From the IMG/VR virus record IMGVR_UViG_3300045988_179398, positions 60,111-124,110 of that record: 64,000 nucleotides of DNA. One strand, given 5' to 3'. The position numbers and the translations under genes were made by a program. Origin of the DNA: a virus. This document shows, in pieces, positions 2,344 to 53,825 of the stretch; positions within the stretch are counted from its first letter, which is position 1, and each line of letters begins with the position of its first letter. The notes under the pieces were generated by a model that saw only the letters and a list, made by a program, of their open reading frames with translations, was not told where the DNA came from and did not search any database.

Positions 2344-5300
2344 ATGGCGGTTTATAAACCAAGTAATTGCGTCCCGTTTTTATCTTGTTGGGATTTGACG
2401 CAGCCCCAATACATTAGCGGAGAATTGAACACTTCGAATGAAACCGTGACGGGGTATAAAGTTAGAGTTTTAGATAGTGAAAATAACACAATTTTTGAAG
2501 GGAGCGAGTTTAACCCAATAAACTTTTCAGACAAAGTAATAAACAGCGGTCTCAACGGCTCAATTTTAACTCTTCCCTTAATTGTTTCGGTTGATAACTT
2601 GGAGACTGCGGATGCGCAGTATAATTTTATATATTATCAGAAAGGGCAAAATAAGTGGTATGGTTTTGCCAAAAACTCTTTTTACGAAATCTCCAATTTT
2701 TCGAACAATTATCCCGACCAGCCATACAAATGGCAGATAACGCTCGCACAGGGTCAGCAAAACATAGATGGTGTTCTTGAACAGCAACCCTCCGACGAAT
2801 ACTTCGATATGGTAATCGACGAAGCAAAAATTCTCGGCTCGACTGGAAACCGTATTCAGAGTTGGTTGTCGGAAAATATATACAAAGATTATTACATTCA
2901 ATTATACGACGCAAGTAACAACGAACTCGGCGTGAGAACGCGCATCTCGAGTTACGATCATTCTTATGGTTTCATATACCCGCAAGAAAATACGATTTCG
3001 CAAGAATTGGTCGATAGTGCGAGTTACTTTAAAATCTTCAAAGACACGAATGACCCGCAATACGTTTCAACGGCGAGGTTGATTAATTACAGGTTAAAGA
3101 CCGATATAGACAAGGTTGTGCTTGATGGTAAATTCCCGATAAATACTGAAAGTTTCGATGGTAGATTTAAACCTTCGGGAGATCCTTCTGTAGTTTCAAA
3201 CCCTTATTTTACGCAGGTTTATGACGGGGATGTAACGAGTAATGTTACTTACGGAGCTTATACAAGGACAGAGAATACCACACCCCTCGCGGAAGGTACG
3301 ACGTTTTTACTTATGTATCAAGGCGATACAAATACCGAACCAAACCCTACTTATAATAAATATAATGGTGTGTTTGCTTTCCAGTCGGCAGAGTTTAAAG
3401 ATGGGAAAACCACGATTAAATGGTTACGCCCCGCTAACTTCAACAAATACTCCGATTTTCTTAATCGGTTGATTTGCGTTCAAAGCGAAAACACAAATTA
3501 CAGCACGAGCGCGACGGCAGAAAATCTCGGTACGATTAACCAAACCGAATTGATGTTCTACGACGAAACCGCGATAGGGTTATACCCCGTTTACGAAGAC
3601 GGAACCAAGACTCTGAAAGTCGCGGAGGTAACGCTCGCCAATTCCGCGATAGGGAAGCCGCAAAATTTTGAGGGCGGCATCATTTCGTCGGTAAAGGTCA
3701 AAGCTCAACTAACGGGGGTAACCTTAACTGCGATTTGTCTTGGCGGTAATAAGTATGTTGTTAAAGCGCCAGATACATATACAGGAACGGCAACCGTAAA
3801 TATCACCTATATGGAAGATAAAGGTGAAGTTTTCAAAAATACGGCGGGAAAGGCGTATATACGCCCGTTTATTGGAATTCATGCGGGCGATAAACTTTTT
3901 TATGGGAAGGACTTTGCTTCAAGCGTTACAATCGATTATATCGATGACGTCGGTAATTCGAAGAACAAATTTAGCCCGACGTGGTATATCGAATACAACT
4001 CCGCCGAGAAGAAGTTGGACCTCGACGATAAATATTCGATTCGTTCGTTCTTCAAAACAAGCGACGAAAACCCGTTTTACGCAAAAGCTTCGCCCGTTTT
4101 AACCATCGATTGCGATCAATGGGAGAAAGATAGCGAAGATAAATATTACAAAAACGAGTACGGTTATTGCGTATGCAAAAGAAGATATGTAACATTTAAA
4201 GGCACAATTACCAATCGCAACTGGGTTAATTATCAATGGGTATTAACAGACCTTACGACCAACAACACCCAGATTTCCGAGAAAATTTATCGCGGTAGTA
4301 CGGAATGCACTTTTTACGGATTACAAAACGACCATTATTACGAAATATCTTGGATAGTTGAAGACGAGTTTGGCGGCATTTTTACCTGCGAGCAAGTCTT
4401 TTTCTTAGACGTATCCATCAACGACAGCCCGTTCCCGTTCGAAGCGAAATATGAGTGCGAAACGCAATCGGTGCTCATCAACTTCGCCAGAGATGGCGTA
4501 ATTATCCCCGATCCTGCATTATATAGTTACGATACGTTTATGGTGAGGGTGGAAGAAGGTTCTAATATTTATCAGCCTTACATTGTGAAAGGGGAGAAAA
4601 ATCTCAAGTATACTTATAGGGTTTTGGCTGAAAATAACTTTGACCCCGATAAGGCCGATTACACGATAGAATACGTTGACACCGATACGGACAATGGTTA
4701 TCTTCAATTAGGCGACATACAACCCGAAACTCCGTCCCCCGACCTTACTTATCTTATGAGTTATACGATGACGCAGATAGGAGACTCTGAATCGGCAACG
4801 GGTGAAATCCCCGCGCCAACATCGGATGATTTTGCGCTCAATTCACAGCACGTTCTTAACGCGAATTTTGTCGGCGATGTGATAACTTACGAAATTGACA
4901 TCGAAGATTTTAACGATTTGCCTGCGCACATAGGGTTAGCGGTAGAATTATTGCCTCCGTCTAAAACTAATGCGGAAGGAGAGGTTGAGGCAGAAGAAAA
5001 CCGCAACAAGATAAAGTTGAATTGTTATAAAAAAATCAACAACGGGGCGCCTTTGAATAAATATGAAATCTTTTTCAACATTTTCAAAAAAGATGGCGGC
5101 GGCAAATGGGTAAAAGATGAGAGCGGAAAATGGCAAGAAGAAAATCCCGTTGTCTCAGCATGGATACCCGACAAGGGTTATACGGCAAAAGACAACCGCG
5201 ATTATATTCCCACAACACACCCATACGTTTGGGACGGTACGAAACAAGCTCCCGACAATAATTACTTAAACATCACGGGCGAGGGCGCGCTAAACAGCAG

Positions 5301-24806: not shown

Positions 24807-26113
24807 TTCATTAGTTAAAACTGATAGGTTAAGAGCTTCAGTGAAGAGAGAATATATAATCAGAAGGAGGTGATAAGTAAATGTTAAAAGCGTATAAATA
24901 CAGATTGTATCCAAACAAACAACAAGAAGAACAAATTCATAAAACTTTTGGCTGTTGCAGATTTGTGTATAATCAAATACTTGCTTATAGAAAAGAGAAA
25001 TATAAGCAAGATAAACAACATATGAATAAAATTTCTTGTAATAATTACTGTAATCAAGTTCTTAAAAAAGAATATGAATGGCTGAAAGAGGTAGACAAAT
25101 TTGCATTAACAAATTCAATTTATAATATGGATTCAGCATATCAAAAATTCTTCAAAGAACACGCGGGTTACCCTAAATTTAAGAGTAAGAAAAATCCTAA
25201 AAGAAGTTATACTACTAATCTTACGGGTAGAAATATAGAAGTTTCTTTTAACAATAATAAAATCAAACTTCCGAAACTTAAATGGGTAAAAGCAAAAGTC
25301 CACAGAGAGTTTCAAGGACAAATTAAGTCTGCAACTATATCGCAAATACCTTCTGGAAAATATTTTGTATCTGTATTGGTAGAAACAAGACATATTCCAA
25401 TGGATTCAACTGGAAATATGATTGGATTAGATCTAGGTATTAAAGATTTGCTTATTACTTCTGATGGTAAAAAGTATGGTAATATTCGTGCTACTAAGAA
25501 ATATGAGAAGAAGTTAGTAAAAGAACAAAGAAAATTATCTCATAAAGTAAAAGGTAGCAACAACTGGAATAGGCAAAGAATTAAAGTGGCGCGTATCCAT
25601 GAGAAAATTCATAACACAAGAATTGATAACTTACATAAAATTTCGCATAAACTTATTCAGGAAAACCAACTAATAGTTAGTGAAGATTTATCTGTAAATA
25701 ATATGATGAAGAATCATAATCTTGCAAAAGCAATTTCAGATTGTGGGTGGTATGAATTAACAACACAGTTGGGTTATAAGAGTGATTGGAACAATCGACG
25801 GTATATTAAGATTGGAAGATTTACCAAGAGTAGTCAATCCTGTAATGTGTGCGGTTATATCAATACAGATACAAAAGACTTATCTGTTAGAGAATGGATA
25901 TGTCCTCAATGTAATACAAAGCACAATAGAGATATAAACGCTGCGATTAATATACTCAACGAAGGGTTACGATTGCTTAATGAGGTAGCCTAAAGATATT
26001 TAATAGGGTTGGAACAATCCAAATTTACGCTTGTGGAGTTAGTAGGTTACGAGGACGTTGAAACAAGAAACTCATCGAGTTTTAGTTCATGGGTAGTTCA
26101 CTAAGTTAAACTG
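24807..26113 (+). mobile_element. non-autonomous IS200/IS605-type TnpB unit (copy 1)
   Basis: tnpB plus 3' non-coding tail. Bracketed by 17-nt imperfect direct repeats TTCATTAGTTAAAACTG (24807-24823) and TTCACTAAGTTAAACTG (26097-26113), 13/17 identical ungapped. No tnpA recognised. Confidence 0.55.
24881..25993 (+). CDS. tnpB: TnpB RNA-guided endonuclease (IS605 OrfB family)
   Basis: MLKAYKYRLYPNKQQ N-terminus. RuvC motifs GLDLGIKD, VSEDL, RDINAAINI. Zinc finger CNVCGY..CPQCN. Confidence 0.9.
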   Translation: MLKAYKYRLYPNKQQEEQIHKTFGCCRFVYNQILAYRKEKYKQDKQHMNKISCNNYCNQVLKKEYEWLKEVDKFALTNSIYNMDSAYQKFFKEHAGYPKFKSKKNPKRSYTTNLTGRNIEVSFNNNKIKLPKLKWVKAKVHREFQGQIKSATISQIPSGKYFVSVLVETRHIPMDSTGNMIGLDLGIKDLLITSDGKKYGNIRATKKYEKKLVKEQRKLSHKVKGSNNWNRQRIKVARIHEKIHNTRIDNLHKISHKLIQENQLIVSEDLSVNNMMKNHNLAKAISDCGWYELTTQLGYKSDWNNRRYIKIGRFTKSSQSCNVCGYINTDTKDLSVREWICPQCNTKHNRDINAAINILNEGLRLLNEVA

Positions 26114-26468: not shown

Positions 26469-27005
26469 ATGCAAGTAAAATGTCAAATTTGCGGCAAATC
26501 AATCGACCGTTCAACTGCATATAAAGTCGTGGTCAGCGGCACGAACAAATATTTTTGCTCGGAAGAAGAATTCAACGCTGATAAAGCCCGCAAAGACCAC
26601 GCGAAAGAAGTTCTCGAAACGATTGCGGAGTGTTATCAATATTGCTCTGGTTATGGGGAACCGCCTTATAACGTGGTTAAAAAAGAACTTAAAGAAAACC
26701 TCAAAACGGTCGATATCGAGACGATTTATCAATTCGTAAAAGAAAACCGCGAAAAACTCAAAAAGACGATTGAAAAGAAAATCGAACGAGATGGACCGTT
26801 TTCGCAGGTTTATTTCTTGTTTAGGTATGTGAGTGGGATAATAAAACGGGAAATACTTGAACACGGTTGGAAGGCGGCACAAGTCGCGCCGACCATTCAA
26901 AAAACTGGGATTGATTTGAATTTTTATAATGTCAAACCGAACACAAATCAACTTAAAAAGAGACGCTCGTTAGATGAATTGGAGGATCAACTACTCAGCC
27001 CTTAA
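26469..27005 (+). CDS. zinc-finger protein (possible replication accessory / helicase-loader position)
   Basis: N-terminal CQICG...YFCSEEEF motif. GGAGG RBS. Sits just upstream of the IscB insertion and the DnaB-like helicase. Confidence 0.5.
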   Translation: MQVKCQICGKSIDRSTAYKVVVSGTNKYFCSEEEFNADKARKDHAKEVLETIAECYQYCSGYGEPPYNVVKKELKENLKTVDIETIYQFVKENREKLKKTIEKKIERDGPFSQVYFLFRYVSGIIKREILEHGWKAAQVAPTIQKTGIDLNFYNVKPNTNQLKKRRSLDELEDQLLSP

Positions 27006-27217
27006 AAAGGTGTGGGCTTGCCCACTAGTTGATCAGACTAAGTGTTAAGCTACGTTATCAAAGAATATATAGGCACCGTAGGATGTATTCTCCAGTCTTA
27101 CGCTCTGCGGTATGTGATTAAACAGTTCTGATGAGTAGGAACAGTGTTGCATACGAAAACCTTTGAATAACATTGTCGTGGAGTAACCACTCTAACATAT
27201 AGGAGGCTATAAAAGCA
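27006..27217 (+). ncRNA. candidate IscB omegaRNA (HEARO-type), encoded 5' of iscB
   Basis: 212-nt ORF-free stretch directly upstream of iscB. Nested inverted repeats GATCAACTA (26985-26993) / TAGTTGATC (27026-27034) and AGCCC/GGGCT. Placement follows the known IscB architecture. Confidence 0.5.
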
Positions 27218-28498
27218 ATGGTATATGTATTAAATAAACAAGATGAACCAATAATGCCTTGCAAGGAAGCGAAAGCAAGAAAATTGCTTAAACAGAGTAA
27301 GGCAAAAATAGCAAAACACGAACCGTTTACAATTCAGTTATTGTTCGATTGTGAAAATCAGATACAAGAAGTAAATTTGGGAATTGATGCGGGAAGTAAA
27401 CATATTGGTGTTTCGGCAACGACAGAAAAGCAGGTCTTATACGAGGCAGATGTTGAGCTGAGAAATGATATTGTTAATAAGTTATCTTCTCGTCGCGAGG
27501 CTCGTAGAACTCGTAGAAACAGATTAAGATACCGCCCCGTAAGGTTTAATAATCGAATTAAATCAAAATATAAAGAGTGGTTAGCTCCGAGTATTAAACA
27601 AAAGATAAACACGCATATTCAAGTTATAAAACACTTATACGAAATTTTGCCGATAACAAATCTCATTGTAGAAACCGCTCAATTTGATATTCAAAAGATG
27701 AATAATTCCGAGATATCAGGTGAAGGATATCAACAAGGTGAACAATTGGGATTTTGGAATGTAAGAGAGTATGTGCTTTACCGCGACAATCACGAATGTC
27801 AATATTGCCACGGTAAATCAAAAGACAATATATTAAATGTTCATCATATTGAAAGTCGGAAAACAGGCGGAAATGCACCAAATAATTTAATTACTTTGTG
27901 TGAAACTTGTCATAAAGCTTATCATAAAGGCGAGATTAAATTAAATCTAAAGCGCGGTAAAAGCTATCGGGACGCGGCATTTATGGGTATTATGCGTAAA
28001 ACATTACTTAATCGATTACGCGTGTTATATCCAAATGTTTGCGAAACGTATGGCTATATAACCAAGAACGTTCGTATCGAAAATAACTTGCCAAAAGAAC
28101 ATTATATAGACGCTCGGTGTATAAGTGGTAATCCAAAAGCAAATCCATTAGATTATTACATTTATCAGAAATGTGTCAGAAGACAGAACAGACAAATTCA
28201 TAAAAATAAAATTTTAAGCGGCAGCCGAAAGAGAAATAATCAAGCACCAAGATATGTTTTCGGGTTTAAACTCTTTGATCTTGTAAAATATAATAAACAA
28301 AATTACTATGTTTTTAGCAGAAGAACAAGTGGCGCCTTTGATATAAGAAATCTTAATGGAGAAAAAATAAACAATGGTTCAATAAGTTATAAGAAACTTA
28401 AAAAGATTAAACACAATTCAACAAAACTAATAGAAAGGAGGCGGCAATTCCTCTGCATCTCTAAAAGGGATGTGGTTTCTTTGCCGAAAATTTTATGA
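27218..28498 (+). CDS. iscB: IscB RNA-guided endonuclease (RuvC-HNH, Cas9-ancestor type)
   Basis: PLMP-like PIMP at the N-terminus. RuvC-I LGIDAGSKHIG. Arg-rich bridge helix RREARRTRRNRLRYR. RuvC-II IVETAQFD. HNH CQYCHG..VHHIESR..N..CETCH. RuvC-III EHYIDA. Confidence 0.85.
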   Translation: MVYVLNKQDEPIMPCKEAKARKLLKQSKAKIAKHEPFTIQLLFDCENQIQEVNLGIDAGSKHIGVSATTEKQVLYEADVELRNDIVNKLSSRREARRTRRNRLRYRPVRFNNRIKSKYKEWLAPSIKQKINTHIQVIKHLYEILPITNLIVETAQFDIQKMNNSEISGEGYQQGEQLGFWNVREYVLYRDNHECQYCHGKSKDNILNVHHIESRKTGGNAPNNLITLCETCHKAYHKGEIKLNLKRGKSYRDAAFMGIMRKTLLNRLRVLYPNVCETYGYITKNVRIENNLPKEHYIDARCISGNPKANPLDYYIYQKCVRRQNRQIHKNKILSGSRKRNNQAPRYVFGFKLFDLVKYNKQNYYVFSRRTSGAFDIRNLNGEKINNGSISYKKLKKIKHNSTKLIERRRQFLCISKRDVVSLPKIL

Positions 28499-46280: not shown

Positions 46281-47111
46281 ATGTACAGACAAGGACTTGG
46301 GAGCATAACCTCCCCACAATCAATTCACAACTCAATAATAACTCAGCTTCCTCAAAAATCAACGATAGAATCAGACAAAATTACGACTCAAACCCTAATC
46401 ATCTCACTCAACTCAATGATGGGATTTGCGTATTTGCAACGAGACAATCGGACGATAATGGCGAAAGCGACGAAAATAAGCGTTTACGAAGAAATAAACC
46501 AAATAACGGGCGAAGTAACCTATCGCCAGACGACGGAATTCAGCGAGCGATACGGCAAACCGCCAGTTTACGTCACAACGCTTGAAAGCGAGATAACCGC
46601 CGCCCAGTACACAGATCTCAAAGAGCACAGCTTATACGAACCATATCAACGCAGAGAGATATGGTTTATCGACAACGAAAGCGGACGTGAATACCGTTTA
46701 ACGACGCGAGAGAACACGCTCTCGATAGAGATGTACTCGAAAGCGATAAACGCTGATTACAGCCTACCCCAATGGCTATACGACATAGTGTACCAAGAAG
46801 ACGGGAAGTATATACGGGATTACACCGAGACGAAGGCAAAATGGCGCGAGAAGCAAGAAGCGGCAATCGCTGCACGCAAAGCCGAGATTCAAGCCCGCAA
46901 AGACGCCGAGGCGGCGGAGCGCAAGCGTAAAGCAGCGGAGAAAAAGAAAGCGCAGGCGGCGGCTAAGAAAGCCAAGTCTTTACCAAAACAGACAAAGAAA
47001 ATTACCAAAAGTGATAAAAAGGTATCTGTCATGAGCAAGCCTGTAACAGAGAAAAAGAAGCGAGAAGAAACGGTAGCCGATATGTGGAGCAATTGGGCGA
47101 AAGGAAAGTAA
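46281..47111 (+). CDS. hypothetical protein with Lys/Ala-rich C-terminal region
   Basis: AAGAGGA RBS. Alternative start at 46458. Confidence 0.5.
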   Translation: MYRQGLGSITSPQSIHNSIITQLPQKSTIESDKITTQTLIISLNSMMGFAYLQRDNRTIMAKATKISVYEEINQITGEVTYRQTTEFSERYGKPPVYVTTLESEITAAQYTDLKEHSLYEPYQRREIWFIDNESGREYRLTTRENTLSIEMYSKAINADYSLPQWLYDIVYQEDGKYIRDYTETKAKWREKQEAAIAARKAEIQARKDAEAAERKRKAAEKKKAQAAAKKAKSLPKQTKKITKSDKKVSVMSKPVTEKKKREETVADMWSNWAKGK

Positions 47112-47183
47112 TCGATTTATAAAAGCTCTTAAAATCGCAGATAATTACAGGCTTTTTTCAAACGTTTTATGAAAGGAGAAATT

Positions 47184-47435
47184 ATGGAAAACATCCATCC
47201 GAACGGAAGAATTTGCGTTGAAAGAGACACGCGAAATTGGGAAAGGAATTTATCGAATTTGGTAAAATCGTTACTCGATTTGGATTACGAAATTCAACTA
47301 AAACAAACCGATGACGAAGTGGTGATTTTGGACTTCACGTATGACTCGAGCAAGATAGAGAATCATGGGAATCGTTATCTACTTGTTACGGAAAAAGAAG
47401 AGAAAGAAATAACCGAACGCAGAGAGGAGAAGTAA
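47184..47435 (+). CDS. hypothetical protein (weak paralog of 42472-42762)
   Basis: AAGGAG RBS before ATG 47184. Confidence 0.55.
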   Translation: MENIHPNGRICVERDTRNWERNLSNLVKSLLDLDYEIQLKQTDDEVVILDFTYDSSKIENHGNRYLLVTEKEEKEITERREEK

Positions 47436-47655
47436 TCAAATTTCATTCTTGTTTAAAGCAGCGCAGCGAAGCGAGCAGAAGCAAAGCGATGAATAAAAAA
47501 TAAAAAGAGATTTTGTTCTCGGAAAGCGCGCAGCGCGAGCCGAGCCGCGTTTTGGGAGGCAGGGAACTCTTTTGGGGCGGCTGAGCCAAAAGGTTCCCTG
47601 TAACAGAGAATAAAAAAATAAATCGAAATAATTCCAAAAAAGTCGTATAAAATAC

Positions 47656-47684
47656 TTGACAAAAGAAAAATATTGTGGTATAAT
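47656..47684 (+). promoter_or_regulatory. sigma-70-type promoter P12
   Basis: TACTTGACA, 17 nt, TGGTATAAT. Followed by a 180-nt structured leader (10-bp stem 47813-47822 / 47834-47843). Confidence 0.7.
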
Positions 47685-47868
47685 AGAAGCAGATAGTGGA
47701 GGAGTGGGCAAAGGCGTATCCGCCGCCCATGAATTCCCTATATCTACCCCTTACTTAATTCTTTAAGGGTTGGGCTCAAAATCGCCCATTTTATCGAAGA
47801 TTTTAGAGCGAGTTAGCACTTTTTAATATTGCGAAAGTGCTAAAACAGTTATTTTAAGGAGTAAAATC

Positions 47869-49236
47869 ATGTTCGAATTAAGCGAATTTAGTTACCAAGA
47901 TTGTATTAATTTAGACGAAGAAAGTTACCAAGAAAATGTAGAAATTAACATTGTAGATGCGATATGTGGCAGTGGCAAAACATCGGCAGCAATTAACATG
48001 ATTAATAGTTCCGACGAGGAACAAAGATTTCTTTATATTACCCCTTATCTTGATGAAGTGAATCGTATAATTGAAAGTTGTCCCAATAAACATTTTAGAC
48101 AACCAGAAATTTATGGAACGAAAACAAATGGTATCAAATATCTTCTTGAAAAGGGTGTTAATATAGTATCGACACACGCATTGTTTAAAAATTTTGACAC
48201 AGAAATTATCAAACTCGTAAGGGCAATGAATTACATTCTCGTAATGGACGAAGTTGCCGAAGTTGTAGAAATGCTCGATATAAGCAAGAGCGATCTGCAG
48301 ATAGTGCTTGGTAAAACAGAATTACAAGATAACGGTCTTCTAAAGTGGACAGACAAAGAGTACACGGGTGAATTATGGAATTATCGTAGATTGTGCGAAT
48401 TAAATGCGGTATTTTATCATAATAACACGGCACTATTGTACCTCTTCCCAGTAGATTGTTTTAAGGCTTTTAGTAAAGTTTATGTTCTTACTTATATGTT
48501 TGACGCCCAAGTACAGAGATATTATTATGACTTTTACGGAGCAAAATTCAAATATATAGGCGTTGAGGGTGACAAAGTTAAAAATTATCATTTTGTTGAT
48601 AATCTAGTGGAATCTGATAACAGCAAATTCGTTAAACTAATAACAATTGAAGATAGTGAAACACTAAACGCTTCGGGCAAAGAGCCTTTTTCATTGTCGG
48701 TCTCTTGGTATGAAAAAAATATAAAAAGTTATGCCGAAGGAATTAAGAATAATCTTTATAATTTTTTCCGAAACAAATCTAAAACTCCTTCAAACAAAAA
48801 CCTTTGGACGGTGTTTAAAGATTACAAAAAGCAACTTCAAGGAAAAGGATATGCCAAATCTTTCTTATCTTGCAATGCCAGAGCAACCAACGCTTATTCT
48901 GATAGAACAGCAGTAGCGTATATGTGTAACATCTTTTTCAACCCCATTCTTAAAAATTTCTTCGAAAGCAAAGGCGTAAGAATAGAAGAAGATAAATGGG
49001 CTTTATCAGAATTCCTTCAATTTATGTTTAGAAGCGGTATAAGAAAGGGTGAACGTATTCGGATTTATATTCCCTCGTTAAGAATGCGCAATTTGTTAAA
49101 AAGATGGATGGTTGGAATGTATGATGACAAAATAGATCCAGAAAATCAAGAACAAATCCCAATCGAAGATAAACTCGAAAAAGCAAAAGCGCTGATAAAT
49201 AAATATAATTTGAATGATATATCTCAAGATGCTTGA
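47869..49236 (+). CDS. SF2 helicase-like P-loop ATPase
   Basis: Motif I CGSGKTSAA. Motif II LVMDEV. Motif VI-like QFMFRSGIRKG. Confidence 0.55.
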   Translation: MFELSEFSYQDCINLDEESYQENVEINIVDAICGSGKTSAAINMINSSDEEQRFLYITPYLDEVNRIIESCPNKHFRQPEIYGTKTNGIKYLLEKGVNIVSTHALFKNFDTEIIKLVRAMNYILVMDEVAEVVEMLDISKSDLQIVLGKTELQDNGLLKWTDKEYTGELWNYRRLCELNAVFYHNNTALLYLFPVDCFKAFSKVYVLTYMFDAQVQRYYYDFYGAKFKYIGVEGDKVKNYHFVDNLVESDNSKFVKLITIEDSETLNASGKEPFSLSVSWYEKNIKSYAEGIKNNLYNFFRNKSKTPSNKNLWTVFKDYKKQLQGKGYAKSFLSCNARATNAYSDRTAVAYMCNIFFNPILKNFFESKGVRIEEDKWALSEFLQFMFRSGIRKGERIRIYIPSLRMRNLLKRWMVGMYDDKIDPENQEQIPIEDKLEKAKALINKYNLNDISQDA

Positions 49237-49261
49237 CAACCACGTTCAAAAGTGATATAAT
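49233..49261 (+). promoter_or_regulatory. sigma-70-type promoter P13
   Basis: ATGCTTGACA, 17 nt, TGATATAAT. Overlaps the stop of the upstream gene. Confidence 0.7.
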
Positions 49262-49309
49262 AAAACCATAGAAACAAACCGTGTCGAAATCGACACTTTT
49301 GGGGGACCC

Positions 49310-49840
49310 ATGAAAACATACGAACGCGAACTCGAACTCGGCTTCGAAGTATCCGCCGCCCAGGCGATTAAAGCTATAACCCGCGAGAACATGATAATTC
49401 TCCAACAAAATATAATTCACCAGACGTGGCTCGAAGATGGCGAAGTCAGCGATTACAAATTCCGCACCAGAATACGCAGGACCGAAATCACATATCCCGA
49501 TGCAAATGGCTCGTGGACAAGCAAATGCGAGTTCACGACCAAATACTCGAAGAACGACGAGAAGGCGGCGACACAGGATAATATGGAGCTCAACGCCGAA
49601 ATCACGCCCGAAGAATACGAGAAGTTGAAGAAGATTTACGAGGCGGCGGGCAAAGAAGAAGTAATGAAAATTCGAACCTACTTCAGAACACCGCTTAACA
49701 CGCTTTCGATTTACACGCTCGACACCTACCCGAACGAAAAAGGCGACAGAGCACGCATCGAAATCGAATTCAAAAACAAACAAGAAATGGAGGATTGGAG
49801 GGCACCCGATTGGCTTCAAGATTTAGTTCTGAAGAGATGA
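49310..49840 (+). CDS. CYTH-domain (triphosphate tunnel metalloenzyme) protein
   Basis: N-terminal YERELELGF (ExExK-like). C-terminal ARIEIEFKNKQEMEDWRAPDWL, the typical CYTH end. Confidence 0.5.
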   Translation: MKTYERELELGFEVSAAQAIKAITRENMIILQQNIIHQTWLEDGEVSDYKFRTRIRRTEITYPDANGSWTSKCEFTTKYSKNDEKAATQDNMELNAEITPEEYEKLKKIYEAAGKEEVMKIRTYFRTPLNTLSIYTLDTYPNEKGDRARIEIEFKNKQEMEDWRAPDWLQDLVLKR

Positions 49841-49860
49841 CCGCCGCCTAAAGGAATCGT

Positions 49861-50121
49861 ATGGCAAAGAAGAAACCAGACCAGCTCTGTTGGAACTGCA
49901 AACGCGCCGTGAATTGCGAACCGCTTACCTGCCCGTGGGCAGCTTTCGGGAAGCCGATTGACGGTTGGAAGGCAGAGAAATCAGAGTTCAGAGATGGATT
50001 CGGTAGCAGCGTTAAAATCGTAAAAACATACTGCATAACCGAATGCCCGCTTTTCATCCAGGACAGAACGAGGGAAGAGAGTGTTTACACGCTTTGGCCC
50101 GACGGACGACTTTGGTATTAA
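49861..50121 (+). CDS. zinc-ribbon protein, paralog 1 of 3 (short form)
   Basis: LCWNCKRA..CPWA..GKPIDGWKA...ECPLFIQD. Confidence 0.6.
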   Translation: MAKKKPDQLCWNCKRAVNCEPLTCPWAAFGKPIDGWKAEKSEFRDGFGSSVKIVKTYCITECPLFIQDRTREESVYTLWPDGRLWY

Positions 50122-50148
50122 GTTGGCAGAAAATCAGCAAGGAATTAC

Positions 50149-50655
50149 ATGACAAAAAAAGTAGTAAAAACAATCAAACGAAAGTCGAGAAAAACGGTTG
50201 AAATAGATGAAATCGAAAAGAGAACAGGCGGCGGAATAGGCAGTCAACAGCTCTGCTGGAACTGCAAACGTGCCTGTAATACGGCAGATCATAAATGCCC
50301 GTGGGCAGACAGGGGAGAACCCATCGAGGGGTGGAAAGCGACCCCGACGAGATGGAAAGATCGCGGCCTCGAAATCAGGAGCTATGACATCGTTGAATGC
50401 CCGCTTTTCGTCAAAGATAAGCCCTTTACGGACTACGCCGAGGTGATAAAATACGTCGCCGAAAAGCTCGGATTTTGCGTAGAATACATACGGCGTAATT
50501 ACGAGAAAATGATGGCTCGTTACGAAGACCAGACGGGGGATAAACTCCCGCTTTGGGTATGGGAAAGACAGCCCTACAAAACGAAGAAAAACATCAGCGA
50601 ACAGGGCAAAAGCATCGCCGCTCGAAAGATAAAACAGGCGGCGGGAAGGAAGTAA
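50149..50655 (+). CDS. zinc-ribbon protein, paralog 2 of 3 (with C-terminal helical extension)
   Basis: LCWNCKRA..CPWA..GEPIEGWKA...ECPLFVKD, then YAEVIKYVAEKLGFCVEYIRRNY. Confidence 0.6.
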   Translation: MTKKVVKTIKRKSRKTVEIDEIEKRTGGGIGSQQLCWNCKRACNTADHKCPWADRGEPIEGWKATPTRWKDRGLEIRSYDIVECPLFVKDKPFTDYAEVIKYVAEKLGFCVEYIRRNYEKMMARYEDQTGDKLPLWVWERQPYKTKKNISEQGKSIAARKIKQAAGRK

Positions 50656-50656
50656 A

Positions 50657-51145
50657 ATGGGAGCGAAAATGGAAGAAAATATGGGACAAAAAACAAACCA
50701 AGAACAAGTTGCAATCAAACGTACCAAGAGCAACGGTCGTAAGGAATATGACCTCTACGCCGACACGCTTTGTTGGAACTGCAAACGCTGCACAAACCCC
50801 GATTCTCACCCGTGCCCTTGGGCGGAAAAAGGTGAGCCGATCGAAGGTTGGACCGCCGCCCCAGGGAGAGAATTTTTCCATTACCTCCAGACGGGCGAAA
50901 AGGTGAGTTTGGGCCGCTCCTACGTGGTTACGGCTTGCCCGCTCTTCGTCCAGGATAGACCGTTCTCGACCTACGCAGAAGGCATTCAATGGGTTGCCGA
51001 TGCACTCGAAATCTCTCCGAGCACGGTCTTGGGAAAGCCCGCTCTTTACTTCCAAAAGTACGAAGAGGTCTACGGTAAGAAGCTGCCCCATTGGCTCGTG
51101 AATTACGGTGCCGAAAGAATCGCATTCCCGAATAATCTGAAATAA
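50657..51145 (+). CDS. zinc-ribbon protein, paralog 3 of 3 (with HTH-like C-terminal extension)
   Basis: LCWNCKRC..CPWA..GEPIEGWTA...ACPLFVQD, then YAEGIQWVADALEISPSTV. Confidence 0.6.
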   Translation: MGAKMEENMGQKTNQEQVAIKRTKSNGRKEYDLYADTLCWNCKRCTNPDSHPCPWAEKGEPIEGWTAAPGREFFHYLQTGEKVSLGRSYVVTACPLFVQDRPFSTYAEGIQWVADALEISPSTVLGKPALYFQKYEEVYGKKLPHWLVNYGAERIAFPNNLK

Positions 51146-51179
51146 TCGAAATTATTTTTCAAAAAGCGGTTGTAAACGC

Positions 51180-51208
51180 TTGACAAAGCCATTACAAAGT
51201 GGTATAAT
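51180..51208 (+). promoter_or_regulatory. sigma-70-type promoter P14 (no CDS downstream)
   Basis: AAACGCTTGACA, 17 nt, TGGTATAAT. Confidence 0.75.
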
Positions 51209-51214
51209 GTACTT

Positions 51215-51514
51215 GCAAGCTGAAAGAGCGGTGTTGGATATCGTGTGCAAAGTTGTTGCCGCTCAAGCTTGTACCAACCCTCAAAGGGTTACAATTAAAT
51301 ATCCGCCGCCTCTAACGCAACATCCCATTGGCGGCGGAACAAAGCTCACACCAGGCGGCGGGAATAGAAAAGAAATTAAGTCCATTTGACTATCACCTCA
51401 CTATGTAAGCAAAAAGAATTAAGCAAAACAAATGAGAGATAATCGTCCATTTTTGCGAGAACCTCCTTACCGCCGCCGCGAAACCCTGACCGAAAGGTTG
51501 GGGTTCTTTCTTTA
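51215..51514 (+). ncRNA. candidate ncRNA of about 300 nt, bounded by a promoter and a terminator
   Basis: Bounded by P14 and the terminator at 51483-51514. No ORF with an RBS. Internal stems GAGCGG 51236 / CCGCTC 51260 and CCGCCGCC 51303 / GGCGGCGG 51330, plus a second GGCGGCGG at 51354 and a second CCGCCGCC at 51471. Confidence 0.5.
51483..51514 (+). terminator. rho-independent terminator
   Basis: 10-bp stem AACCCTGACC / GGTTGGGGTT (two G:U pairs), GAAA loop, then CTTTCTTT. Confidence 0.65.
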
Positions 51515-51879
51515 CCCAAATTTCGCGTTTAAGCTTTTTATTTCCCAGTAATCTTGGGGCTTCGTCGGGAATTCTGATCGGGGACGAGTAAACTATCGTC
51601 CCGACACCAAACGCCCAGCAAACCTGCACGGCAAATGGCAAGTGCGAGAGATATTGGCTTTAAGCAAGCGAATTAGGCGGCGGACAGTAATCAGCCAGAA
51701 GAGTTGTCTCCGCTTCCGCGATTGCTTATACCAGAGGGAAACCCCAGAGAGAGTATTCGACGCCCAAGTTTAGACTCCGCTCCTCGTTGGCTTAGAACAG
51801 AGAGCAAAGAGCAGAGAAAGCCGATAGCGAGCGAATGACGGGTTGGAGAGAGATTGGAGGGAAGACACCCCTATTATTG

Positions 51880-52130
51880 TACGAGTATATACTCCATATT
51901 TCATTCTTACTCTATACGAGTATGTACTCGTAGTAATCATAGTTCCGTACTTCTAATATACTCTTCTAGTATATATACTCTTATATCGGATATATTCTTT
52001 CAGAATATATCCTCTTAAACTATTCACTTCGTTCATAGTTTAGGTTTAATATTATTCTTTTATTATTTACTTAGCTTAATACAAGTGAAGAGTATATATT
52101 ACCAGTAAACTTAATATGAGTATATTAGAA
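51880..52130. repeat. AT-rich iteron/palindrome array (candidate replication origin)
   Basis: GAGTATAT at 51883, 52090 and 52118, with variants at 51918 and 51967. ATATACTC at 51887, 51956 and 51973. 12-bp palindrome GAGTATATACTC. TACGAGTA-TG-TACTCGTA at 51915-51932. 11-bp inverted repeat GGATATATTCT/AGAATATATCC at 51988-52012. Confidence 0.5.
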
Positions 52131-52155
52131 TTCTTATATAATAACTATCCTTATT

Positions 52156-52197
52156 ACGCGTGAGCGCACATCACGCATGCATGCGCATAATGCGCGT
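52156..52197. repeat. GC-rich nested palindrome next to the AT-rich array
   Basis: ACGCG...CGCGT arms enclosing the 12-nt perfect palindrome CGCATGCATGCG (52174-52185). Confidence 0.6.
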
Positions 52198-52289
52198 CCG
52201 AGGGGTAGAAGATAAGCGAAGCGAACAAAGCGCCCGCCGCCCAAGCAAAAAAATCCCCGAAATATTTTTTAAAAACCGCCGCCAAACGC

Positions 52290-52318
52290 TTGACAATCTC
52301 TCCGTGTTGTGGTATAAT
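52290..52318 (+). promoter_or_regulatory. sigma-70-type promoter P15
   Basis: CCGCCGCCAAACGCTTGACA, 17 nt, TGGTATAAT. The leader contains the hairpin CCGCCGCC 52369 / GGCGGCGG 52397. Confidence 0.75.
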
Positions 52319-52427
52319 GTTCTCGTAAGTTGAGAGCGGCGATCACCGCCCCGCTTATCACGGTTTATCCGCCGCCTTAAAACACAGCATCTCCTCGGCG
52401 GCGGGCAGACCATTCACAGGAGGGTTT

Positions 52428-52772
52428 ATGAAACTTGAATCTTGTCGCAATCTTACAAGCGACGAAACCGAAACTACGATCACAATGATGGGCAGCGGTG
52501 CCGATGGCTTCCGCGTCTACACAACCAGCAACTCGATGCTGACGAAAATAGGCAAACTCCTCGACGTGCCCGACACGGCTTGGAAGCTCGAAAAGGTCGA
52601 GCGTTACTCTGACGGGGTTCCATCGGGCTACTTCTTCACTTGCTCGGTTAAGAACTGCTTACAGCTTAAAGCCAAAAAGGTAAGCAGAGAGCTCACGGAA
52701 GAGGAAAAAGAGGCGCTCGCTCAGCGTTTCGCAGCAAGCAGAGCGGAGAAAACAACCCGAAATCAAATCTAA
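52428..52772 (+). CDS. hypothetical protein (last + strand gene)
   Basis: AGGAGGG RBS. Confidence 0.6.
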   Translation: MKLESCRNLTSDETETTITMMGSGADGFRVYTTSNSMLTKIGKLLDVPDTAWKLEKVERYSDGVPSGYFFTCSVKNCLQLKAKKVSRELTEEEKEALAQRFAASRAEKTTRNQI

Positions 52773-52921
52773 GGTGAAAATCTCCCAACGCGGCTGGGAA
52801 ATAAAAGACAATTCGAGGTCGGGTTGAATACTCACCCGTCTCGAAGTCTTTTTCGGAAATTTAGGCTAATCAATTGGCTCACTCGCAAAATTCTTTTGCA
52901 TATATATACTCCTAAGAGGGG

Positions 52922-52958
52922 CGGCGGTCCGTATAGTTCGGGCTGCCGTTCTTTTTTT
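52922..52958 (+). terminator. rho-independent terminator
   Basis: 9-bp stem CGGCGGTCC / GGGCTGCCG followed by TTCTTTTTTT. Confidence 0.65.
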
Positions 52959-53285
52959 ATAGACGCAGGGCAGTCGTCTGGGAAAAATAGGGCGTCCATG
53001 GTGGTCGAGAAAAATGGGCGCGTTCATGCGATTTGAGCGTGAGCGAAAAAACGTGGCGGCGCGTTAGGAAGAAAAAAGGGGGTGGCAGAGGAAAGAAAAT
53101 GTGCCCCCGTGGGGAAAATGGCCCGCATAGTAAGGGTTGCTGGGTCTTTATTTATAGTGGCGGATGGCAGTCCACTTTCGATTATTCAACGGTTACTTCG
53201 AGAAACCCGTTGCAGCTGCTGGAACATCCGCGTTTTTAAGGCGGTGCGGATGAAAGACCGCCGTGTTGTTACGGGTTAGCGACGG

Positions 53286-53366
53286 TTATCTCCCGCCGCC
53301 GTGCATGTAGTAGCAAAACATCACGAAAATAATCGAGGCTATAAACAGCCAACCAAAACCGACCAT
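53286..53366 (-). CDS. hydrophobic micropeptide (26 aa, below ORF-track cutoff)
   Basis: AGGAGG 7 nt upstream. MVGFGWLFIASIIFVMFCYYMHGGGR. Starts 1 nt after the stop of the preceding micropeptide. Confidence 0.45.
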   Translation of the reverse strand: MVGFGWLFIASIIFVMFCYYMHGGGR

Positions 53367-53367
53367 G

Positions 53368-53448
53368 TCAAAACCTCCTGTTATTGTCTTGAGTTACTTT
53401 TACTGCCACATAGATTACAACAAACCATATAAACCACGCAAGTACCAT
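53368..53448 (-). CDS. hydrophobic micropeptide (26 aa, below ORF-track cutoff)
   Basis: ATG shares its A with the TGA stop of the 53448-53825 gene. GGAGG upstream. MVLAWFIWFVVIYVAVKVTQDNNRRF. Confidence 0.45.
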   Translation of the reverse strand: MVLAWFIWFVVIYVAVKVTQDNNRRF

Positions 53449-53825
53449 CACATCACCTCCTTGTAATTATCAATTGCCCACTGGCAATCTTTTTTCGTGT
53501 TATATTTTCCGAAGCAAGTTAACGTGCTGAATTCCTGTTTGTAGCGGTTGTAAACAACCCACCAAACCTTTCCGTCTAACGCTGTTCTTTGCCTCGGCTC
53601 GAACCGACTTTCTTCCTTGTAGAACGTAATCCTTTTACCCGTTTCTGCGTTGCAGTTGTAGAAGTAATATTCGTTGCAGAATTTCTCGAAATCCATTCCT
53701 TTCGGAATTTCATACGGAGAAATCCACTTCGAGTACGGGTTGACTTTGCTTGCGGTTGCGTAAACCGCTTTACCTTCTGCGTGCATTTTGCGAGCCTGAG
53801 TTTTTGTTATTTTTTCGTAGTTCAT
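53448..53825 (-). CDS. hypothetical protein
   Basis: AGGAGG RBS. Confidence 0.6.
   Translation of the reverse strand: MNYEKITKTQARKMHAEGKAVYATASKVNPYSKWISPYEIPKGMDFEKFCNEYYFYNCNAETGKRITFYKEESRFEPRQRTALDGKVWWVVYNRYKQEFSTLTCFGKYNTKKDCQWAIDNYKEVM

Follow-up and report, generated by a model that had tools for sequence, protein, structure and literature searches.

A clustered exact octamer in a large gut phage, conserved among relatives and switched in concert in a sister lineage

In the 64-kb window (the whole stretch of 64,000 nucleotides that was analysed), which comes from a large gut phage, an exact count finds 21 copies of the octamer CCGCCGCC/GGCGGCGG inside positions 46597-53300 (about 6.6-6.7 kb), an array confined to 5% of the phage genome, against 2 in the remaining 57 kb. 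Comparison with relatives supports purifying selection on the octamer and its change in concert between lineages, and we strongly infer that the octamers are read as exact DNA words by a stringent sequence-specific trans-acting factor encoded outside the cluster.

A dense cluster of exact words

The first-pass annotation had reported at least 20 clustered copies against 2 elsewhere, a claim that the exact count strengthens. Its positions agree with those in Table 1, except that it omitted the site at 46597 and gave 51471 for the site at 51470. The two copies beyond the array are at 5095 and 31476. As had been described, copies occur without strand bias (11 on the + and 10 on the - strand, interspersed) in both coding (9) and non-coding (12) DNA, and 8 of the 9 coding copies encode Ala-Ala. 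The further description of the cluster as centred on the AT-rich array was right only in part. Under Markov models of order 0-2, 0.4-1.0 copies are expected per window (GC content 40.8%) and 0.07-0.2 in the array region, and the regional excess has a binomial p = 1e-18. The octamer tops the region-enriched k-mers at each k from 6 to 9, and the enrichment is specific to the exact word (87-fold, compared with 1.7-fold for one mismatch and 1.3-fold for two).

We give next to no credence to the cluster being a by-product of composition, that is, of higher local GC, Ala/Gly codons and short (CCG)n repeats. GC ranges over 0.33-0.49 across the region, a mild rise that reaches 0.44-0.49 within 49-53 kb, and the coding copies do favour Ala-Ala. 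The first-pass annotation had itself named local GC and Ala/Gly codon usage as the explanation that would undo its claim, but GC is only slightly raised and 12 copies are non-coding. Composition is refuted by the Markov expectation, by the near absence of enrichment among one-mismatch variants, by the conservation of the sites, where the word is kept far better than its flanks, and by the different exact word of a sister lineage (see below). The proteins of the region show a 4-fold enrichment of Ala-Ala dipeptides (17/1647 codons vs 43/16948); together with the non-coding copies, this excess indicates that the DNA word shapes the proteins and not the reverse.

Four copies share the 11-mer TATCCGCCGCC (47717, 49350, 51300 and 52366), whose reverse complement occurs at 31476, and each of the four lies 33-92 nt past a -10 box, as first noticed, behind a perfect TTGACA-N17-TATAAT promoter. 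Such promoters are not special to the array region, since 14 of them are found on the + strand from 8458 to 52290. The promoter-proximal 11-mer is better described as a weak extended consensus, T-R-t-CCGCCGCC-Y, common to all sites.

Table 1. Features of the octamer array. Octamers marked + read CCGCCGCC and those marked - read GGCGGCGG.
Feature	Position	Strand	Remarks
Octamer array, 21 exact CCGCCGCC/GGCGGCGG words	46597..53300	11 +, 10 -	boundaries syntenic in relatives
Octamer in geneA (46281-47111), ACC GCC GCC = T-A-A	46597..46604	+	first site of the array in all relatives
Octamer in geneA, gaG GCG GCG Gag = E-A-A-E	46910..46917	-	presence varies among relatives
Octamer in geneA, Q-A-A-A	46955..46962	-	kept in 5/5 aligned relatives; GGTGGCGG in L222
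Octamer in 5' leader, 36 nt past -10 box of P47656	47720..47727	+
Octamer in geneB (49310-49840), S-A-A	49353..49360	+	kept in 6/6 relatives; CCGCCACC (A-T) in L222
Octamer in geneB, E-A-A-G	49642..49649	-	GGTGGCGG (E-V-A-G) in L222
Intergenic octamer, geneB stop codon to Zn86 start codon	49841..49848	+
Octamer in Zn168 gene, GGC GGC GGa = G-G-G	50227..50234	-
Octamer at 3' end of Zn168 gene, Q-A-A-G	50637..50644	-
Octamer in Zn162 gene, T-A-A-P	50853..50860	+
Octamer as 5' arm of hairpin, P51180 transcript	51303..51310	+	predicted fold
Octamer as 3' arm of the same hairpin, 19-nt loop	51330..51337	-	predicted fold
Octamer in candidate non-coding RNA from P51180	51354..51361	-
Octamer directly before terminator 51482-51515	51470..51477	+
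Non-coding octamer, left of AT-rich array	51676..51683	-
Non-coding octamer, right of AT-rich array	52234..52241	+	kept in 4/4 aligned relatives
Octamer ending 6 nt upstream of P52290 -35 box	52276..52283	+	in the window only, not in relatives
Octamer as 5' arm of g114 leader hairpin	52369..52376	+	predicted fold
Octamer as 3' arm of g114 leader hairpin, 20-nt loop	52397..52404	-	predicted fold
Octamer in 5' arm of terminator behind g114	52920..52927	-	kept in relatives
Last octamer, at convergence of + and - genes, in final codons of a small - strand ORF	53293..53300	+	CCGCCACC in L222
AT-rich array, GAGTATATACTC-type palindromes	51870..52140		AT-rich block at same syntenic position in all relatives
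Conserved non-coding block, A-tract/G-rich boxes, right boundary of the array	52960..53290		indels not multiples of 3
Perfect sigma-70-type promoter P47656	47656..47684	+
Perfect sigma-70-type promoter	49233..49261	+
Perfect sigma-70-type promoter P51180	51180..51208	+	with its leader, a cassette paralogous to P52290
Perfect sigma-70-type promoter P52290 of g114 (52428-52772)	52290..52318	+
Three zinc-ribbon paralog genes, inside the array	49861-50121, 50149-50655, 50657-51145	+

Conservation and concerted change among relatives

The same array recurs, in the same syntenic region, in over 20 related gut-metagenome contigs. Of 59 aligned sites, 47 retain the exact word, whereas 12-33% retention would be expected from neutral drift. 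The array spans 6.5-6.7 kb in four genomes of differing gene content; within it, sites are both gained and lost among relatives, and replaced gene cassettes bring octamer copies of their own. Between the AT-rich array and about 53.15 kb, C-type sites are followed by G-type sites in at least 10 genomes, and the extra lineage-specific sites in this interval obey the same polarity.

The sister lineage L222 carries CCGCCACC/GGTGGCGG instead, with 16 copies within the region and 1 outside (p = 3e-8), and the hybrid L221 has 9 copies of this word. The identical one-base substitution is seen at the orthologous sites of 46955, 49353, 49642 and 53293, and includes non-synonymous changes; DNA identity around the switched sites is about 88% (74% for the site at 53293). 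That the same switch recurs at orthologous sites, even at the cost of changing amino acids, argues that the word is read by a sequence-specific trans-acting factor. When arrays and proteins of the relatives are compared, none of the proteins encoded in the cluster follows the word type, which suggests that the reader is encoded elsewhere or in the host. The purifying selection and the concerted change support the first-pass annotation in its general notion of a recognition element.

Alternative readers of the octamer

The three zinc-ribbon paralogs inside the array had been suggested as readers, in which case the words would be operators regulating the region's early promoters. Four sites behind promoters, one abutting a -35 box and one within a promoter spacer in the relative L003 are consistent with this, but it is very unlikely. 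Arrays persist in L003 and L226, where the only zinc-ribbon gene is distant and outside the array, and L222 has a single, divergent zinc-ribbon gene; zinc-ribbon identity does not track word type, homologues in other phages (L209-L214) have no octamers alongside, and the family has no match to a known DNA-binding fold. The spacing of sites to promoters is also variable (33-92 nt downstream, or upstream), and most sites are far from any promoter. Another improbable alternative, though less so than the zinc-ribbon operators, acts at the RNA level: CCGCCGCC and GGCGGCGG in the same + strand transcripts could pair as 8-bp GC clamps, and the resulting structures in mRNA or non-coding RNA would serve stability, processing or the control of translation. 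Folding predicts two leader hairpins with loops of 19-20 nt, one of them kept in four relatives, and a candidate RNA of about 300 nt from P51180 has four words paired two by two (folding z-score -3.3). Complementarity survives the switch to CCGCCACC/GGUGGCGG, and in L222 orientations alternate nearly perfectly (16/18 switches, permutation p = 0.001). The alternation is, however, not significant in any of 20 other genomes tested, the counts of C-type and G-type words are unbalanced in several (L205, L207, L227), the leader hairpin is absent altogether from the relative L002, and pairing alone does not explain why all pairs of a genome use one common word. Moreover, the sites at 52234, 52276 and 53293 are upstream of promoters or in a - strand unit, and a search of Rfam gives no match, even at E = 1. 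The two orientations, the coding sites, the site upstream of a promoter and, in L003, the one within a promoter spacer also count against antitermination or processing signals in RNA, proposed earlier, as a general explanation. T4-type phages carry promoter-plus-stem-loop (PeSL) cassettes, which the paralogous cassettes of P51180 and P52290 resemble in having a promoter and a leader hairpin each, but such cassettes account for at most 4 of the 21 octamers.

An origin or packaging role for the array is possible. The words may form a duplex-DNA binding array for a phage protein encoded outside the cluster, an explanation that we regard as possible but doubtful. Around the AT-rich array and the A-tract block, which is conserved, this protein would organise an origin of replication, a start point for packaging or a centromere-like domain, and the word switch would be a specificity change of the initiator/iteron or ParB/parS type. 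Nine of the 21 sites fall within 1.1 kb around the AT-rich palindromes, an AT-rich block occupies this position in every relative and adjoins the highly conserved non-coding block, and strong promoters are directed both towards and away from it. A duplex site naturally permits both orientations, origin, partition and immunity systems typically change specificity in concert, and a distant phage locus (L212) has about 15 tandem copies of a 27-bp unit some 330 bp upstream of a zinc-ribbon gene. Known origins of this kind include clusters of DnaA boxes that adjoin an AT-rich unwinding element, and satellite phage P4 has octamer 'type I iterons' in its ori and crr. The array resembles these origins in having a short word in both orientations, genic and intergenic, that flanks an AT-rich element, and in a specificity that co-evolves with its reader. 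Their sites are usually degenerate and fall within 1-2 kb adjoining the initiator gene, whereas those of the array are exact, without the near-cognate variants of DnaA boxes, iterons and parS sets, and spread across 6.6 kb, with remote sites inside genes strongly conserved. No local protein follows the word type, some arrays have no zinc-ribbon genes, the replication genes are 20-40 kb distant, and the AT-rich array's own sequence is replaced between relatives. Words read by DNA-processing machines are a parallel in form: DNA uptake sequences (DUS/USS) and the FtsK/SpoIIIE-orienting KOPS/SRS are likewise exact 8-12-mers with selected density, tolerated in genes and with one-base lineage dialects, but they are spread genome-wide (and KOPS/SRS are polar), unlike an array limited to 5% of a phage genome.

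A Chi-like signal as the favoured explanation

In the single most likely mechanism, which we put forward tentatively, the octamers serve a helicase-nuclease as a Chi-like signal, in a region that is terminally redundant or close to a genome end. The word would be a stop or attenuation and recombination-start signal for an AddAB/RecBCD-type enzyme entering at a DNA end, either the enzyme of the host or the RecD2-like helicase and exonuclease of the phage itself. The region of about 6.6 kb would be terminally redundant, being either a direct terminal repeat or the first-headful redundancy beside a packaging site near 53.1-53.3 kb. The enzyme would enter it through the right edge at one genome end and through the left edge at the other, so that both orientations would be needed, in equal numbers and interspersed. 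The appeal of the Chi-like signal is that exact-only enrichment is typical of the words of scanning enzymes, unlike the degenerate arrays of transcription factors and initiators. The word is placed irrespective of coding, and the proteins bear the cost as Ala-Ala or Gly-Gly-Gly. We also count in its favour the retention at 47/59 sites, the gain and loss of sites, the cassettes with their own copies, the concerted switch in L222 and L221 with no local protein tracking the word, the conserved boundaries, and the C-then-G order in at least 10 genomes.

A precedent comes from the E. coli phage LLS and the P. aeruginosa phage MD8, in which 23 and 32 host Chi octamers, respectively, are concentrated towards one genome end, in strongly biased orientations of 20:3 and 32:0; Chi sites are few in lambdoid phages that have a recombination module of their own (Zheng et al. 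2025, PMC12315714). The array resembles the LLS and MD8 clusters in its exact G-rich octamer, with about 20-30 copies in one region, a placement that ignores genes and differences of a few bases between host groups. It differs in its 11:10 orientation; their word is a known host Chi, and their location is terminal, which here is only proposed. LLS and MD8 have no recombinase of their own, and the phage studied here encodes an Erf recombinase and an exonuclease, which speaks against the Chi-like signal. As Chi activity depends on orientation, the interspersed 11:10 ratio also speaks against it, and it can hold only with terminal redundancy of the whole region. The contig ends in the region give no firm sign of physical termini; that of L207 is a circular-assembly overlap, and 13 other contigs continue through the same point. 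The Chi words of B. subtilis (AGCGG), S. aureus (GAAGCGG) and L. lactis (GCGCGTG), read by AddAB/RexAB enzymes (PMC5959072), are likewise short, exact and G-rich, and the 3' GCGG is common to GGCGGCGG, GGTGGCGG and the Bacillus subtilis and Staphylococcus aureus words. These Chi words have 5-7 nt, not 8 with flanking preferences, and are spread over the whole host genome, unlike the octamer in its one region, whose reading by a nuclease is putative. In 1.2 Mb of gut Clostridia DNA, which may not be the host's, GGCGGCGG is the commonest GC-only octamer (observed/expected 1.08), with a strand coherence that does not exceed that of comparable words, GGAGGCGG among them. The peak of site density around the AT-rich array and the leader hairpins are left unexplained by a Chi-like signal.

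As a Chi-like signal, each site would act independently and additively, in keeping with the turnover among the sites and with the viability of the hybrid L221. A reader of other specificity, for example in a different host, would then lie behind the sister lineage's one-base switch to GGTGGCGG.

Number, exactness and conservation of the octamer

The octamer reads CCGCCGCC (C-type) or GGCGGCGG (G-type) on the + strand. Counted exactly, it occurs 23 times in the 64 kb window; all but two copies (5095 and 31476) fall within 46597-53300, 11 as C-type and 10 as G-type. The list in the first-pass annotation stands, except that it missed the copy at 46597 and placed one other a base off. The window has a GC content of 40.8%, and Markov models of order 0-2 predict 0.4-1.0 copies per window and 0.07-0.2 per region; the binomial p-value for the excess in the region is 1e-18. 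The octamer is the top region-enriched k-mer at each k from 6 to 9, and the enrichment is limited to the exact word: the density inside relative to outside is 87-fold at zero mismatches, 1.7-fold at one and 1.3-fold at two.

Twelve of the 21 copies are non-coding: they occupy leaders and spacers between genes, the stem of a terminator and a place 5' of a promoter. Eight are in + strand genes, where they encode Ala-Ala (seven) or Gly-Gly-Gly (one), and one is in the final codons of a small - strand ORF. The proteins of the region are four times as rich in Ala-Ala dipeptides as those elsewhere, so neither GC content nor codon usage is the cause of the cluster, and the DNA word is imposed on the proteins. 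Local composition and Ala/Gly codon usage, which the first-pass annotation named as an explanation that would undo its claim, are ruled out by 21 copies where 0.07-0.2 are expected. Neither a local Markov model nor codon usage accounts for the count, and the mismatch test, the conservation of the word and the related word of a sister lineage also speak against a compositional by-product, to which we give next to no probability.

Across IMG/VR, ENA, Logan and JGI, over 20 contigs have the same array in the same syntenic interval, with identities to geneA, the gene holding the first site, from 92% down to ~43%. Examples among these contigs carry 20 (L001), 14 (L002), 21 (L205), 24 (L227) or 17-20 copies (L249, L251, L256 and L259), and the ~14 kb flanks of the arrays carry few or none. 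Both the geneA site that opens the array and the one that closes it, where genes converge, have orthologues across genomes, and the array spans 6.5-6.7 kb in four genomes of differing gene content. At aligned sites the exact octamer is kept in 47 of 59 comparisons, where the local nucleotide identity of 72-92% predicts 12-33%, and the flanks of conserved sites are often scrambled. Sites have been gained and lost among relatives, and gene cassettes that replace one another carry their own copies. Pooling 158 distinct sites yields a weak extended consensus, T-R-t-CCGCCGCC-Y. The array is among the most strongly selected non-coding signals of these genomes.

Human and animal gut metagenomes commonly contain phages of this clade; for geneA alone there are 220 clusters of homologues, and several of these are on contigs of 120-145 kb. 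A megablast search of 50,697 phage records returned no match to the region, and we found nothing relevant in the literature about the octamer in phages. A scan of the viral collection for CCGCCGCC-N15-25-GGCGGCGG returned mostly high-GC phages. The fecal phage MT835537, which has a zinc-ribbon match, was rejected: its GC content is 56% and it has no array.

Phage setting and elements of the array

The window comes from a large uncultured phage and encodes tail proteins, a DnaE-type polymerase, a primase, a DnaB helicase, a RecD2-like helicase, an Erf recombinase, an exonuclease, RNA ligase/PNK, IscB/TnpB elements and two tRNAs. The polymerase shares 42-45% identity with the polymerases of a human-fecal phage and of large Clostridioides phages. 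Gut Clostridia MAGs (Acutalibacteraceae, Anaerostipes, Lachnospiraceae) contain the closest genomic relatives of the TnpB proteins (77-80% amino acid identity), a hint that the host range is in gut Clostridia. In Rfam searches at the gathering threshold, the only matches are a tRNA and a HEARO (omega-type) RNA at 26986-27190 (119.6 bits), both elsewhere in the window, and at E <= 1 nothing is found in 51100-53500. The HEARO RNA lies directly 5' of a 426-aa HNH-endonuclease (IscB-like) ORF at 27218-28498, and an IscB element thus seems to be present in the phage.

Fourteen perfect TTGACA-N17-TATAAT promoters, all on the + strand between 8458 and 52318, drive + strand genes from 8.4 to 52.3 kb; 13 of them have the TG extended -10 motif (0.01 expected by chance). 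The array is the final 6.7 kb of this + strand block, which ends in convergence with - strand genes. In relatives, a 225-aa Sigma70_r2-domain protein is encoded ~3.5 kb upstream of geneA (L221:6601-7278; L222:5717-6394).

Features of the window, with the elements of the array in their order along it
Feature	Position	Strand	Description
TnpB-like (IS200/605 OrfB) gene	24881-25993		
tRNA-Ser (GCT) and tRNA-Trp (CCA) genes	32463-32772		adjacent
TnpB-like (IS200/605 OrfB) gene	32970-34124		
geneA	46281-47111		276 aa, Lys/Ala-rich tail
YonV-like/DEAD-like helicase gene	47869-49236		455 aa; phrog_2467, PF27199; 33% GC; no octamers
geneB	49310-49840		
Three zinc-ribbon paralogs (49861-51145)			
Candidate non-coding RNA	51215-51515	+	~300 nt, from promoter P51180 to a strong terminator; folding z-score -3.3
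AT-rich array	51870-52140		GAGTATATACTC-type palindromes; 93.6% identity to L001
Promoter P52290 with g114	52428-52772 (g114)		
Conserved non-coding block	52930-53300		six A-tract plus G-rich boxes

The place of the YonV-like helicase gene is taken in relatives by other cassettes that carry octamers, and the gene looks like a recent insertion. Antisense to the candidate RNA, at ~51375-51449 on the - strand, is a 24-codon ORF, MDDYLSFVLLNSFCLHSEVIVKWT, behind an AAGGAGG ribosome-binding site; judged from sequence, the two might form a type I toxin-antitoxin pair. In every relative an AT-rich block has the same syntenic position, with a differing sequence. The conserved non-coding block holds an imperfect ~50-bp direct repeat (52933-52985 and 53123-53175, ~190 bp apart), and indels in the block do not come in multiples of three. 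The - strand block closes at 53290-53450 with two tiny hydrophobic ORFs, MVLAWFIWFVVIYVAVKVTQDNNRRF and MVGFGWLFIASIIFVMFCYYMHGGGR, both of which have a ribosome-binding site; the C-terminal Gly-Gly-Gly of the MVGFGWLFIASIIFVMFCYYMHGGGR ORF is encoded by the final octamer.

A one-base word switch and the search for a reader

In a sister sub-lineage the word differs by a single base. The 144.7 kb contig L222 has CCGCCACC/GGTGGCGG 16 times inside the interval and once outside (p = 3e-8), together with three copies of the old word, and the 138 kb scaffold L221 is a hybrid with nine new-word and four old-word copies. L223-L225 belong to the L222 sub-lineage by their common geneA homologue and few old-word sites. 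The identical single substitution is found at the sites orthologous to 46955, 49353, 49642 and 53293, where the surrounding DNA is ~88% identical to the window at the first three and 74% at the last. Two of the substitutions are non-synonymous (Ala-Ala to Ala-Thr and Glu-Ala to Glu-Val). The distant lineages L226 and L227 retain CCGCCGCC, which makes the switch derived; as read from these alignments, it is also concerted and adaptive. Since one base changed in concert at many dispersed sites, the word is recognised by a specific reader, and the viability of the hybrid L221 suggests that the sites act independently.

No protein encoded in the interval follows the word type among geneA, geneB, the zinc-ribbon proteins and g114. 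The geneA and geneB proteins of L222 are 83-87% identical to those of the window, and relatives with the CCGCCGCC/GGCGGCGG word, such as L226 and L227, go down to 43% (geneA) and 51% (geneB). The identities of zinc-ribbon and g114 proteins do not segregate by word type either. None of the four matches a known family, and sequence searches with geneA and geneB return no PDB match. Pfam and PHROGs scans of the 10 ORFs of the region give only the YonV-like/DEAD-like helicase match and two PHROGs of unknown function.

The first-pass annotation proposed the adjacent zinc-ribbon paralogs as possible binders of the octamer, and this proposal finds no support, because genes and sites do not occur together across relatives: L003 and L226 have the array with no zinc-ribbon gene inside the cluster, and the zinc-ribbon homologues of other phages (L209-L214) come without octamers. 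It is thus very unlikely that the octamers are zinc-ribbon operators. The zinc-ribbon family (CWNCKR...CPW...CPLF) has 1834 representatives in a profile search and no Pfam model; its AlphaFold model is confident (pLDDT 82.6), and the predicted fold matches uncharacterised viral proteins only and nothing in the PDB. In the distant phage locus L212 (4024-4933), a 27-bp unit is repeated ~15 times in tandem, ~330 bp ahead of the zinc-ribbon gene. Given that no interval protein follows the word type and that some arrays lack zinc-ribbon genes, the gene for the reader is probably in another part of the phage genome or in the host.

Candidate functions of the word

An array bound as duplex DNA by an origin, packaging or partition protein would account for the high site density around the AT-rich array and for the conserved non-coding block, and as with an iteron origin, repeated sites lie beside an AT-rich element (five within 570 bp on its left, four within 260 bp on its right). 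Iteron origins, however, have compact clusters of partly degenerate sites and a nearby initiator that covaries with them, and here exact words extend over 6.6 kb and no local protein covaries; we give this reading a rather low probability, only slightly below that of the Chi-like one discussed next. Pairing of C-type with G-type words at the RNA level draws on two predicted leader hairpins, on the candidate RNA from P51180 and on the new word keeping its complementarity. It also draws on L222:10140-15884, where orientations alternate almost perfectly (C g c g ..., 16 of 18 switches, permutation p = 0.001), but none of 20 other genomes tested has this alternation, and as a general rule we rejected it, and pairing with it, as significant in L222 only. 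C-type and G-type counts are moreover often unbalanced, some sites are outside + strand transcripts, and L002 has no hairpin, all of which makes RNA pairing unlikely. RNA-level antitermination or processing signals, suggested in the first pass, would, if nut/put-like, be strand-specific, fixed in place in the leader and conserved in structure. They do not fit as a general account, since copies have either orientation and also lie within genes or 5' of promoters, L002 has no hairpin and Rfam gives no match.

The exactness of the word, its indifference to coding, the selection on density with turnover, the additive sites and the dialects appear to bring it nearer to the words of DNA-processing machines than to operator or iteron sets. 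Our first-ranked reading, itself of rather low probability, is that the word may be a Chi-like signal in a region that is terminally redundant or adjoins a genome end. Entry would then be from one side of the region at one end of the genome and from the other side at the opposite end, and this would give equal and interspersed orientations. The nearest precedent is in phages LLS and MD8, where host Chi octamers cluster near one genome end (PMC12315714), and the Chi sequences of B. subtilis and S. aureus (PMC5959072) have 3' GCGG, as do both words here. The octamer is, like Chi, a short, exact, G-rich word within the range of 5-8 nt, but Chi is polar with respect to the entry end and here 11 C-type and 10 G-type copies are interspersed, with relatives similar. 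Only from the AT-rich array to ~53.15 kb is there polarity, C-type then G-type in conserved order, which fits the idea of a terminally redundant Chi-like region; the expected polarity could be rescued only if the whole region were terminally redundant. The objections to a Chi-like role are serious, and the phage's own Erf recombinase and exonuclease are among them. A Chi word would be over-represented and strand-skewed in the host chromosome. In a 1.2 Mb sample of DNA from gut Clostridia, the putative hosts, the word is the commonest GC-only octamer (79 copies, the next having 41), with an observed/expected ratio of 1.08 and a strand coherence like that of GGAGGCGG and similar words, and there is no clear Chi-like signature in this sample.

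Some contig ends fall within the region. Four independent assemblies break in the AT-rich array (L003, L219 and L221 end there, L261 starts there), and these breaks may be artefacts of coverage or of repeats. The ends of L207 and L224 coincide to the base, near 53146, which would favour a physical terminus there; against it, the end of L207 is a ~55-bp circular-assembly overlap and 13 contigs read through the position. A 6.6 kb repeat at both ends of the 145 kb contigs was rejected, the region being single in each contig.

Since the Chi-like polarity fails, we do not file the array as a member of the Chi family; its best place is among signals of the "genomic word" kind, where Chi clusters are its nearest known relative. 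A somewhat unlikely reading is that the array is not host Chi, nor operators or iterons in the classical sense, but forms the cis part of an undescribed phage word-marking system. An exact 8-nt word with one-base dialects by lineage would tag a ~6.6 kb early-gene domain by the putative origin/packaging region, and its reader would be a scanning enzyme or protein dedicated to it, with its gene in another part of the phage genome; the RecD2-like helicase with the exonuclease is one example. Its function might be end protection, genome circularisation or self-recognition. The probability left over goes to mechanisms that we have not thought of.

The finding is real, strongly selected and unexplained by current annotation, and, whatever the word does, its concerted change by one base amounts to a clean natural experiment through which comparisons of genomes could identify the reader. 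A Chi-like role would make these the first Chi sequences of gut Clostridia, and the GGCGGCGG and GGTGGCGG variants would then mark the host range at the level of sequence. If the reader is a phage protein, word and reader would form a new cis/trans pair that serves large Firmicutes phages in replication, packaging or the handling of genome ends.
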